DNA of 64,000 bases from Escherichia coli (GTDB taxonomy: Bacteria > Pseudomonadota > Gammaproteobacteria > Enterobacterales > Enterobacteriaceae): assembly GCF_003334305.1 (NCBI RefSeq), contig NZ_QOWS01000001.1; one strand, 5' to 3'. Each line of letters starts with the position of its first letter. Position 1 is the first letter of the stretch. A program made the position numbers. Below are positions 57,501 to 60,500 of the stretch, piece after piece.

Positions 57501-60500
57501 CTTACCGCTGTATTTGCTTATAACGACAATATGGCCGCTGGCGCACTGACAGCATTAAAAGATAATGGCATTGCGATTCCGTTACATCTCTCAATCATCG
57601 GTTTCGATGATATTCCCATCGCCCGTTACACCGACCCGCAATTAACGACCGTGCGTTATCCCATTGCTTCAATGGCTAAATTAGCCACCGAACTGGCCTT
57701 GCAGGGGGCAGCAGGCAATATTGATCCTCGTGCTAGCCACTGTTTTATGCCGACGTTAGTGCGTCGCCATTCTGTCGCAACACGCCAGAATGCGGCGACG
57801 ATCACTAACTCAACAAATCAGGCGATGTAACCGCTTTCAATCTGTGAGTGATTTCACAGTATCTTAACAATGTGATAGCTATGATTGCACCGTTTTAACG
57901 TTGTAACCCGTATGTAACAGTGAATAATCACTTTCACCGAGGTAATAGCGTCATAACAACAATTAAAGCCGTTTTCTGGAGCGTTACCGGGCATGGAAGA
58001 ACGAATTTTAAAAAGTGAGCTTCGGCGTTCAGTAACACTTCATTAACTCTACTGCCCCGCCGAGCATTTATCTCAAGCACTACCCTGCATAAGAAAAACC
58101 GGAGATACCATGAATAAGAAGGTGTTAACCCTGTCTGCTGTGATGGCCAGCATGTTATTCGGTGCCGCTGCACACGCTGCTGATACTCGCATTGGTGTAA
58201 CAATCTATAAGTACGACGATAACTTTATGTCTGTAGTGCGCAAGGCTATTGAGCAAGATGCGAAAGCCGCGCCAGATGTTCAGCTGCTGATGAATGATTC
58301 TCAGAATGACCAGTCCAAGCAGAACGATCAGATCGACGTATTGCTGGCGAAAGGGGTGAAGGCACTGGCAATCAACCTGGTTGACCCGGCAGCTGCGGGT
58401 ACGGTGATTGAGAAAGCGCGTGGGCAAAACGTGCCGGTGGTTTTCTTCAACAAAGAACCGTCTCGTAAGGCGCTGGATAGCTACGACAAAGCATACTACG
58501 TTGGCACTGACTCCAAAGAGTCCGGCATTATTCAAGGCGATTTGATTGCTAAACACTGGGCGGCGAATCAGGGTTGGGATCTGAACAAAGACGGTCAGAT
58601 TCAATTCGTATTGCTGAAAGGTGAACCGGGCCATCCGGATGCAGAAGCACGTACCACTTACGTGATTAAAGAGCTGAACGACAAAGGCATTAAAACTGAA
58701 CAGTTACAGTTAGATACCGCTATGTGGGATACCGCTCAGGCGAAAGATAAGATGGACGCCTGGCTGTCTGGCCCGAACGCCAACAAAATCGAAGTGGTTA
58801 TCGCCAACAACGATGCGATGGCAATGGGCGCGGTAGAAGCACTGAAAGCACACAACAAGTCCAGCATTCCGGTGTTTGGCGTCGATGCGCTGCCAGAAGC
58901 GCTGGCGCTGGTGAAATCCGGTGCACTGGCGGGCACCGTACTGAACGATGCTAACAACCAGGCGAAAGCGACCTTTGATCTGGCGAAAAACCTGGCCGAT
59001 GGCAAAGGTGCGGCTGATGGCACCAACTGGAAAATCGACAACAAAGTGGTCCGCGTTCCTTATGTTGGCGTAGATAAAGACAACCTGGCTGAATTCAGCA
59101 AGAAATAAGACTGACTGGGCGCAGTCTATTACTGCGCCCTTATTGTATGGCCAACAAGGTAAAATTATATGGTCAGCTCAACGACTCCGTCTTCCGGGGA
59201 ATACTTGTTGGAAATGAGCGGTATCAACAAGTCCTTTCCTGGTGTTAAGGCACTTGATAACGTTAATTTAAAAGTCCGGCCACATTCTATCCATGCATTA
59301 ATGGGGGAAAACGGTGCAGGAAAATCAACATTATTAAAATGCCTGTTTGGTATTTATCAAAAAGACTCCGGCACCATTTTATTCCAGGGTAAAGAGATCG
59401 ATTTCCATTCTGCCAAAGAAGCACTGGAAAATGGTATTTCGATGGTACACCAGGAGTTAAACCTGGTATTACAACGTTCGGTGATGGATAACATGTGGCT
59501 GGGGCGATATCCCACCAAAGGCATGTTTGTCGATCAGGACAAAATGTACCGCGAAACCAAAGCGATTTTTGACGAACTGGATATTGATATCGATCCGCGT
59601 GCGCGCGTCGGCACATTATCCGTTTCGCAAATGCAGATGATCGAAATCGCCAAAGCGTTTTCCTATAACGCGAAAATTGTGATTATGGATGAACCGACTT
59701 CTTCGTTAACCGAAAAAGAGGTCAATCATCTGTTCACTATTATTCGTAAATTAAAAGAGCGCGGCTGCGGTATTGTTTATATCTCGCATAAAATGGAAGA
59801 AATCTTCCAGTTATGTGATGAAGTTACCGTATTGCGCGACGGTCAGTGGATCGCCACCGAACCGCTGGCAGGACTGACGATGGACAAGATCATCGCCATG
59901 ATGGTTGGGCGTTCTCTTAATCAGCGTTTTCCTGACAAAGAAAACAAGCCGGGCGAAGTCATCCTCGAGGTGCGTAACCTAACGTCACTGCGCCAGCCGT
60001 CGATTCGCGATGTCTCGTTTGATCTGCATAAAGGGGAGATCCTCGGTATTGCCGGGCTGGTGGGGGCGAAACGTACCGATATTGTTGAGACGTTATTTGG
60101 TATTCGCGAGAAATCGGCTGGCACCATTACGTTGCACGGCAAACAGATCAATAACCATAATGCCAACGAAGCCATAAACCACGGATTTGCACTGGTAACT
60201 GAGGAGCGCCGCTCAACGGGAATTTATGCCTATCTGGATATTAGTTTTAACTCGTTAATTTCCAATATTCGCAACTACAAAAATAAAGTTGGTTTACTGG
60301 ATAACTCGCGGATGAAAAGCGATACCCAGTGGGTGATTGATTCGATGCGGGTAAAAACGCCGGGTCATCGGACGCAAATTGGTTCGCTCTCCGGTGGTAA
60401 TCAGCAAAAGGTGATTATTGGTCGCTGGCTACTAACGCAACCAGAAATATTAATGCTCGATGAACCGACGCGCGGTATTGATGTCGGGGCGAAGTTTGAA

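Follow-up and report, generated by a model that had tools for sequence, protein, structure and literature searches.

Many binding-protein-dependent ATP-binding cassette (ABC) importers carry a hairpin after the first cistron of their operon, and the binding protein is thereby made in excess over the membrane complex. Repetitive extragenic palindromic (REP) elements after malE in malEFG and after hisJ in hisJQMP were reportedly described as mRNA stabilisers by Newbury, Higgins and co-workers in 1987, and such elements are not known to be followed by U-tracts or to terminate transcription. Intercistronic hairpins are also found in the puf operon of Rhodobacter capsulatus, where segmental decay has been shown experimentally. 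Steady-state RNA 3′ ends are moreover found just downstream of stable stem-loops, even of those without U-tracts (Dar and Sorek, 2018; PMC6061677). Here we analyse a hairpin in the spacer between mglB, encoding the periplasmic galactose/glucose-binding protein, and mglA, encoding the ABC ATPase, in the mglBAC operon of Escherichia coli, using a 64-kb stretch of genomic DNA (hereafter ‘the window’, the whole stretch analysed, to which positions refer unless K-12 coordinates are named). The best explanation of the evidence is that this hairpin is an intercistronic element defining, within mglBAC, the 3′ end of an abundant transcript of mglB alone, and the E. coli site is probably an intrinsic terminator that leaks, its hairpin in addition shielding the RNA that is released.

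The mglB-mglA hairpin and the RNA 3′ end mapped at it

Positions 59109-59168 are exactly the 60-nt mglB-mglA spacer, which reads GACTGACT-GGGCGCAGT-CTATT-ACTGCGCCC-TTATTGTATGGCCAACAAGGTAAAATTAT and is followed by the ATG of mglA. The features of the hairpin and its surroundings are:

59106-59108, + strand: mglB stop codon TAA
59117-59125, + strand: hairpin 5′ arm GGGCGCAGT, its GGGCG nearly invariant in 44 distinct orthologous sequences
59126-59130, + strand: hairpin loop CTATT, 5 nt; CTATT or CGTTT within E. coli, 3 to 7 nt between genera
59131-59139, + strand: hairpin 3′ arm ACTGCGCCC, with the upper three pairs covarying
59140-59148, + strand: U-rich tail UUAUUGUAU, 6 U in 9, interrupted
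59144, + strand: position matching the K-12 RNA 3′ end, the fifth base past the stem, where the RNA ends ...GCGCCCUUAUU

The hairpin spans 59117-59139 with a stem of nine perfect pairs, seven of them G-C; TTATTGTAT lies directly 3′ of it, and the tail TTATTGTATG has five T in its first eight bases. An earlier reading of the window by eye, the sequence-only reading, had described a 9-bp GC-rich stem with a T-rich tail directly after the mglB stop. Stem and tail are as it had said and the hairpin does lie in the spacer, the word ‘directly’ alone needing correction since the stem starts 8 nt past the stop. The hairpin was the top terminator-like match of a consensus scan, its folding energy in isolation is -16.5 kcal/mol, and its 91-nt context folds at -26.8 kcal/mol (z = -2.8), with one of 200 shuffles being as stable.

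Perfect hairpins of at least 9 bp with at least six G/C per arm occur ten times in the window when overlapping ones are counted (nine are distinct) against a mean of 0.57 in dinucleotide shuffles, and on this ground we regard them as real features and not as products of chance; most of the others are REP elements or terminators at the ends of operons. The sequence of the mglB-mglA hairpin is unique in the window, even when three mismatches are allowed, and 5422 of 5426 complete E. coli genomes have it exactly once, invariably in the mglB-mglA spacer. A search of positions 57000-62500 against Rfam at a permissive E-value returned no family at the spacer. In the minimum-free-energy fold the post-stop GACUGAC pairs with the mglA start region, which we took to be chance, as the post-stop sequences are wholly different between genera and the pairing is not conserved. 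Judged by eye alone, the tail CCUUAUUG might also pair with CAACAAGG of the Shine-Dalgarno region; folding did not predict this.

A separate observation concerns E. coli K-12 AB1157 (NZ_CP076404.1, 2001-3474), in which IS5 sits directly after GCGCCCTTA, three bases past the hairpin. The junction corresponds to window position 59142/59143, and the DNA from mglA to part of sanA is deleted, with mglB and the hairpin intact; this is presumably the classical mgl-51 allele.

Among the 3′ ends that were curated from Term-seq of E. coli MG1655 (Adams et al., 2021, eLife, PMC7815308; Supplementary file 1) is a ‘primary’ one of mglB, which lies on the minus strand at 2239314 with TTCAGCAAGAAATAAGACTGATTGGGCGCAGTCTATTACTGCGCCCTTATT before it and GTATGGCCAA after it. 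In the MG1655 annotation mglB occupies 2239350-2240348 and mglA 2237769-2239289, both on the minus strand, and the K-12 spacer is 60 nt long like that of the window, the sole difference falling at window position 59115; K-12 2239314 therefore corresponds to 59144. This 3′ end was represented by 147,960 reads in lysogeny broth (LB) at an optical density (OD) of 0.4 and by 77,439 at OD 2.0, and was not called in M63 glucose, i.e. it was called in two of three conditions (PMC7815308). Its absence from M63 glucose fits catabolite repression of mgl. At LB OD 0.4 the other ends on the same strand comprised one internal to mglA (24,034 reads), one internal to mglC (38,353) and one downstream of mglC, at the K-12 REP (51,513; PMC7815308), making the mglB 3′ end the most abundant called in the operon, at about three times the post-mglC end. 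Such counts are steady-state levels and not efficiencies; they do put the end of a large fraction of the stable mgl RNA immediately past mglB.

In the sequence-only reading the hairpin had been a partial terminator or an mRNA-stabilising structure, with 3′-end mapping by Term-seq named as the check and a transcript lacking 3′ ends at the hairpin as the outcome that would speak against it. The published data give a strong mglB 3′ end five bases after the stem (147,960 reads in LB OD 0.4), and the K-12 end at 59144 supports that hedged proposal.

Further 3′ ends in the same dataset are recorded here in their own right. The mglA-internal end maps to window position 59631 (K-12 2238827), 462 nt into the gene, and the mglC-internal end to 61198 (K-12 2237260), 493 nt into the gene; both are flagged as not Rho-dependent, and the latter is marked ‘sRNA’ (small RNA) in Supplementary file 3 of that study (PMC7815308). 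An ‘orphan’ 3′ end on the K-12 minus strand at 2240498, window position 57960, has 92,182 reads and is likewise flagged as not Rho-dependent (PMC7815308). It lies 150 nt upstream of the mglB ATG and about 30 nt past a promoter-like site at 57901-57928, with no hairpin evident, and could be a promoter-proximal or 5′-untranslated region (UTR) end or the 3′ end of galS. The TERMITe supplements hold no mgl entry.

Conservation of the stem-loop across Enterobacteriaceae

The spacer was compared across the family by a scan of one genome per species, which gave 80 Enterobacteriaceae loci with MglB at 92-100% identity and, together with the window, 81 spacers bounded by the mglB stop and the conserved MglA N-terminus. 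Spacer lengths range from 60 to 249 nt. A simple pattern recovered the GGGCG...CGCCC hairpin in 71 of the 81, 6-24 nt past the stop and farther where an element is inserted, and every one of the 81, whether or not its tail is U-rich, has a stable hairpin (-12.6 kcal/mol or lower). The ten spacers outside the pattern are:

Franconibacter (L076): the same hairpin with a shorter loop
Raoultella (L057, L066) and L071: 60-150 nt inserted between both arms
Trabulsiella (L034, L063): an imperfect version of the hairpin and a second one
L065, L068, L070 and L081: an unrelated GC-rich hairpin

Among the observations made on individual spacers, the sequence inserted in L057, L066 and L071 is structured, so that the hairpin loop is invaded or expanded, and these spacers reach 177-249 nt. 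In two Citrobacter loci (L022, L044) and in Buttiauxella (L081) a palindromic insertion of about 120 nt (…CACCCCAGTTACATAGTTATCTATG…CTGGGGATTCAC…) lies between the mglB stop and the hairpin; we take it to resemble the enterobacterial repetitive intergenic consensus (ERIC), or intergenic repeat unit (IRU), repeat. Both Citrobacter loci keep the GGGCG hairpin downstream of the insertion. The 133-nt spacer of Salmonella enterica subsp. arizonae (L043) contains the hairpin, then TGAAACTG without a U-tract, then a REP-like palindrome (GCGGATAAGG…CATCCGGC), an arrangement that looks like two stacked 3′-protective structures.

Covariation was counted over a 10-pair structure in an alignment of the 44 distinct sequences. 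Standard pairs occupy 93.3% of cells compared with 83.2% in shuffles, none of 500 shuffles reaching the observed value, and when the 3′ partner was slid by 1-3 columns only 29-57% of cells were paired. Both-sided changes were present in six of the ten pairs, and the covariation score was 0.286 against 0.117 in shuffles, again with 0 of 500 as high. Across about 25 genera the basal five pairs, GGGCG/CGCCC, do not vary save for a single U-A in a Kluyvera, neither G-U nor swapped variants occurring, and the next three pairs vary freely yet stay paired (CG/UA/UG, AU/GC/GU and AU/CG/GC/UA). Within E. coli the differences fall in the loop and just upstream of the hairpin, and in one lineage (L003) a G-C pair has been replaced, with compensation, by A-U. 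The distance from stop to stem is not conserved, being 8 nt in E. coli and 6-24 nt in other genera. The conservation, with its compensatory changes, shows that the hairpin structure is selected and, judged from the aligned spacers, the hairpin is under clear structural selection across Enterobacteriaceae.

Termination, protection and other explanations

If the E. coli hairpin acts as a leaky intrinsic terminator that also protects RNA, transcription would begin at a single mgl promoter upstream of mglB and, after the stem GGGCGCAGU-CUAUU-ACUGCGCCC and the tail UUAUUGUAU had been made, a fraction of complexes would stop without Rho, probably at U59146-U59148, the remaining polymerases reading through to supply mglA and mglC. 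The released mglB RNA would be trimmed by one or two nt to end at 59144, and the GC-rich stem would shield it from 3′-to-5′ exonucleases, the outcome being more mglB message, and hence more binding protein, than ATPase/permease message. We infer termination rather than processing as the origin of the 3′ end, and likewise the termination efficiency, the stabilising effect and the consequence at the protein level. A ribosome at the mglB stop would presumably cover the first bases of the stem and could lower termination when translation closely follows transcription.

The E. coli hairpin was scored with a discriminant of the d'Aubenton-Carafa type, a rough yardstick as applied here with modern folding energies. 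Its value of +4.5 is borderline positive compared with +18 (at 8535) and +17 (at 51417) for canonical terminators in the window, and its tail score nT is 2.87 against 3.3-3.4 for the same two. According to the HUB model, strong intrinsic terminators need GC at -11/-10 and purine-U at -2/-1, with the ‘bubble-edge’ phasing motif GC(U)7RU (preprint 10.64898/2026.05.29.728758). By inspection, an end at 59146 would place G59136-C59137 at -11/-10 and G59145-U59146 at -2/-1 with four U in the seven positions between, positions -9 and -8 being stem C's and not U, and A59147-U59148 offers a second A-U site. Termination at 59146 or 59148 would make the mapped end at 59144 a product trimmed by 2-4 nt, and trimming of 3′ ends by this amount is usual in vivo.

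Several points weigh against this account. A steady-state Term-seq end 5 nt past a stem is equally expected from exonuclease trimming of longer RNAs, and the E. coli U-tract UUAUUGUAU is interrupted. The discriminant is above zero in only 16 of 53 distinct orthologous hairpins (median -13.5), so that intrinsic termination by itself does not account for the conservation of the hairpin. Tails are poor in Salmonella arizonae (TGAAACTG), E. albertii (AAATTGTA) and Buttiauxella (GATTCAGA), and those of Citrobacter (TTAATAAC) and Klebsiella (GATTATTC) also depart from the TTTATT type. Finally, PMC7863352, in a passage citing Peters et al. (2009), reports Rho-dependent terminators within mglA and mglC from ChIP-chip, and such stops, if as cited, would feed a processing route.

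These points bear most directly on the possibility that the hairpin is only a stabiliser protecting a 3′ end, at which polymerase does not stop. The mglBAC RNA would then be cut by RNase E, for example in the A/U-rich mglA ribosome-binding region, or decay from its 3′ end, and be chewed back until polynucleotide phosphorylase (PNPase) and RNase II were halted by the stem, leaving a long-lived mglB segment as with the REP elements after malE and hisJ. The hairpin is conserved more strongly than the U-tract, from which it follows that family-wide selection acts on the stem-loop itself, and selection on a stem-loop without a U-tract is what a 3′-exonuclease barrier needs; the hairpin is kept in genera without U-rich tails, as in S. 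arizonae and E. albertii, which have no U-tract, and unrelated stable hairpins followed by A-runs replace it in Pluralibacter and in Citrobacter L065 (CCCGTGCTGG...CAGCACGGGAAAA). Exonuclease trimming generally leaves 3′ ends just past stem-loops without U-tracts (PMC6061677), and A/U-rich single-stranded stretches resembling RNase E sites were noted by inspection at 59145-59148 and 59160-59168. In E. coli, however, UUAUU directly abuts the stem and the mapped end falls inside that tract, and in most genera the stem is followed at once by 3-4 T, as TTT(T)AT, with TTTTATAA or TTTATT in that position in Enterobacter, Lelliottia, Pseudescherichia, Silvania and Pseudocitrobacter. The five basal G-C pairs without G-U or swaps, under upper pairs that covary, fit termination at least as well, since an invariant G-rich 5′ base and a C-rich 3′ base beside the tail are what the mechanics of termination demand and a generic barrier could tolerate swaps. 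We hold protection without termination to be a serious possibility, yet a clearly less probable one than leaky termination combined with protection. Leaky termination and a barrier are not mutually exclusive, and both yield the excess of binding-protein expression over that of ATPase and permease that had been proposed from the sequence.

Protection could also serve a stop made by Rho, acting in a poorly translated mglA start with the RNA then trimmed back to the stem. Such an architecture has been shown to be general (Dar and Sorek, 2018; PMC6061677), and the cited Rho terminators within mglA and mglC, as far as the secondary citation goes, would suit it. Against this, the bicyclomycin-sensitive regions called in K-12 jump from 2236028 to 2242791, leaving none in mglBAC, and the mglA and mglC internal ends carry the flag ‘No’ for Rho dependence (PMC7815308); the C/G ratio of 78-nt segments taken downstream of the hairpin is 0.57-1.29, and no rut-like C-rich, G-poor stretch occurs within 500 nt downstream. 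The hairpin as the protective structure of a Rho-dependent terminator is not supported, given the lack of a bicyclomycin-sensitive region and of a C-rich, G-poor stretch downstream, and we consider it very improbable. An equally slim chance attaches to the palindrome being a DNA or RNA binding site of a regulator, a translational control element of mglA or the remnant of a mobile repeat. Its GGGCG/CGCCC base is more invariant than pairing alone needs and the minimum-free-energy fold joins bases after the mglB stop to the mglA start region, but it is single-copy, unlike REP, and matches no Rfam family, the upper-stem covariation indicates an RNA or DNA hairpin and not a sequence-specific site, the long-range pairing is not conserved between genera, and the hairpin lies at least 17 nt upstream of the Shine-Dalgarno, which is outside it.

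Compared with the leaky, protecting terminator, it is improbable, if somewhat less so than the Rho and binding-site explanations, that the hairpin is a specifically recognised conditional attenuator responding to NusA, NusG, another protein or the closeness of the ribosome at the end of mglB. This idea draws on the almost invariant basal pairs, the freely covarying upper stem, the decay of the U-tract and a stop only 8 nt from the stem. An attenuator of this kind would, if real, tune the MglB:MglAC ratio to the physiological state. MglB is also a ligand of the Trg chemoreceptor.

The mgl operon and its closest counterparts

The window carries the E. coli yeiB-galS-mglBAC locus. Over positions 58000-61800 the window agrees with several complete E. 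coli chromosomes at 100% identity, and all 5426 complete E. coli genomes of the collection match this interval, in which the annotated genes are mglB, mglA, mglC and preA. Gene identities in the window were taken from NCBIfam equivalog models:

55491-56648, + strand: YeiB (NCBIfam equivalog model)
56784-57830, + strand: GalS (NCBIfam equivalog model)
57901-57928, + strand: promoter-like site upstream of mglB, TTGTAA-16-AATAAT, the only one that the promoter scan gave on this strand ahead of mglA
58110-59108, + strand: mglB, periplasmic galactose/glucose-binding protein (NF011924 MglB, 659.9 bits, cut-off 420)
59156-59168, + strand: mglA ribosome-binding region, AAGG plus an A/U-rich spacer
59169-60689, + strand: mglA, ABC ATPase, with its ATG at 59169 (NF008215 MglA, 1080.6 bits)
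60705-61715, + strand: mglC, permease (NF007014 MglC, 641.3 bits)
61731-61753, + strand: REP-like palindrome after mglC, in the operon-end region

The promoter scan of the + strand found no site between 57928 and 60838, the latter inside mglC, so the mglB-mglA spacer is without a promoter-like site. Without such a site, mglA and mglC should be transcribed by polymerases that read through the hairpin, which fits a leaky rather than a full stop. No internal mglA promoter came out of the scan, and the TAAAAT/TATAAT-like block before the ATG lies too near the start codon to serve mglA.

An AGGTA(T/A)AA(Y)T block before the mglA ATG is kept in nearly all 81 spacers. The last ~20 nt of the spacers (window 59150-59168) are unusually conserved as GGCCAACAAGGTATAATT or GCAGCCAGGTATAACT, and include a near-perfect TATAAT beside the Shine-Dalgarno, the E. 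coli spacer being 2 nt longer there (AAGGTAAAATTAT). From its sequence the block is read as the ribosome-binding region with its A/U-rich spacer. Spot 42 and UhpU target the mglB 5′ UTR and not the mglB-mglA spacer.

Downstream of mglC, REP-like palindromes lie at 61731-61778 and at about 61876-61936, and Rfam gave a weak match to naRNA4 (REP-derived) at 61731-61785. A REP or bacterial interspersed mosaic element (BIME) identity of the mglB-mglA hairpin was rejected, since it occupies one place per genome and has no naRNA4 match, while the REP after mglC gives one. The mglC-preA spacer of the window is about 170 nt shorter than that of K-12, where three REPs sit; the K-12 Term-seq ends 2236530 and 2236360 fall in this mglC-preA region, antisense to the convergent preA.

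Full-text literature searching found no paper on the mglB-mglA hairpin; the 1991 operon paper (Hogg et al., Mol Gen Genet), which lay outside the search, may describe it. The significance of the element is small beyond good annotation. As conservation of the hairpin outlasts that of the U-tract, the mgl site is nonetheless a clean natural test case for leaky termination versus 3′-end protection.

Leaky intrinsic terminators in operons, such as that after oppA in oppABCDF, share several traits with mgl: a GC-rich hairpin with a U-containing tail lies past a first gene of high expression, an RNA 3′ end falls within the tail, and the genes beyond depend on read-through. The Term-seq table that lists the mglB end assigns oppA, too, a ‘primary’ 3′ end a short way past its coding region (PMC7815308). 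The mgl U-tract differs in being interrupted and poorly conserved between genera, and the mgl element has some but not every one of the properties of an intrinsic terminator. The sites of Dar and Sorek (PMC6061677) resemble mgl in having a 3′ end a few nt downstream of a stable stem-loop, but are without U-rich tails and show C-over-G enrichment afterwards, whereas the E. coli mgl site has a U-rich tail, no excess of C over G and no Rho call.

The REPs of malE and hisJ, like the mgl hairpin, directly follow the periplasmic binding-protein gene of an ABC importer operon and, as is proposed for mgl, their stem-loop blocks 3′ exonucleases so that the upstream segment outnumbers the distal genes. 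The mgl hairpin differs from REP in being single-copy, of different sequence and short, at 23 nt; in Salmonella arizonae a REP-like element is present in addition, downstream of it. The puf operon offers the same logic as that proposed for mgl, a hairpin that separates proximal from distal cistrons so that a short mRNA is stable and the proximal products are in constant excess, in an unrelated organism and operon and with larger hairpins; the experimentally shown decay is that of puf, and mgl is known from its sequence and mapped ends. Set beside these systems, the mgl hairpin is a textbook intercistronic design, an element of a kind already known with a 3′ end already in a public Term-seq table.

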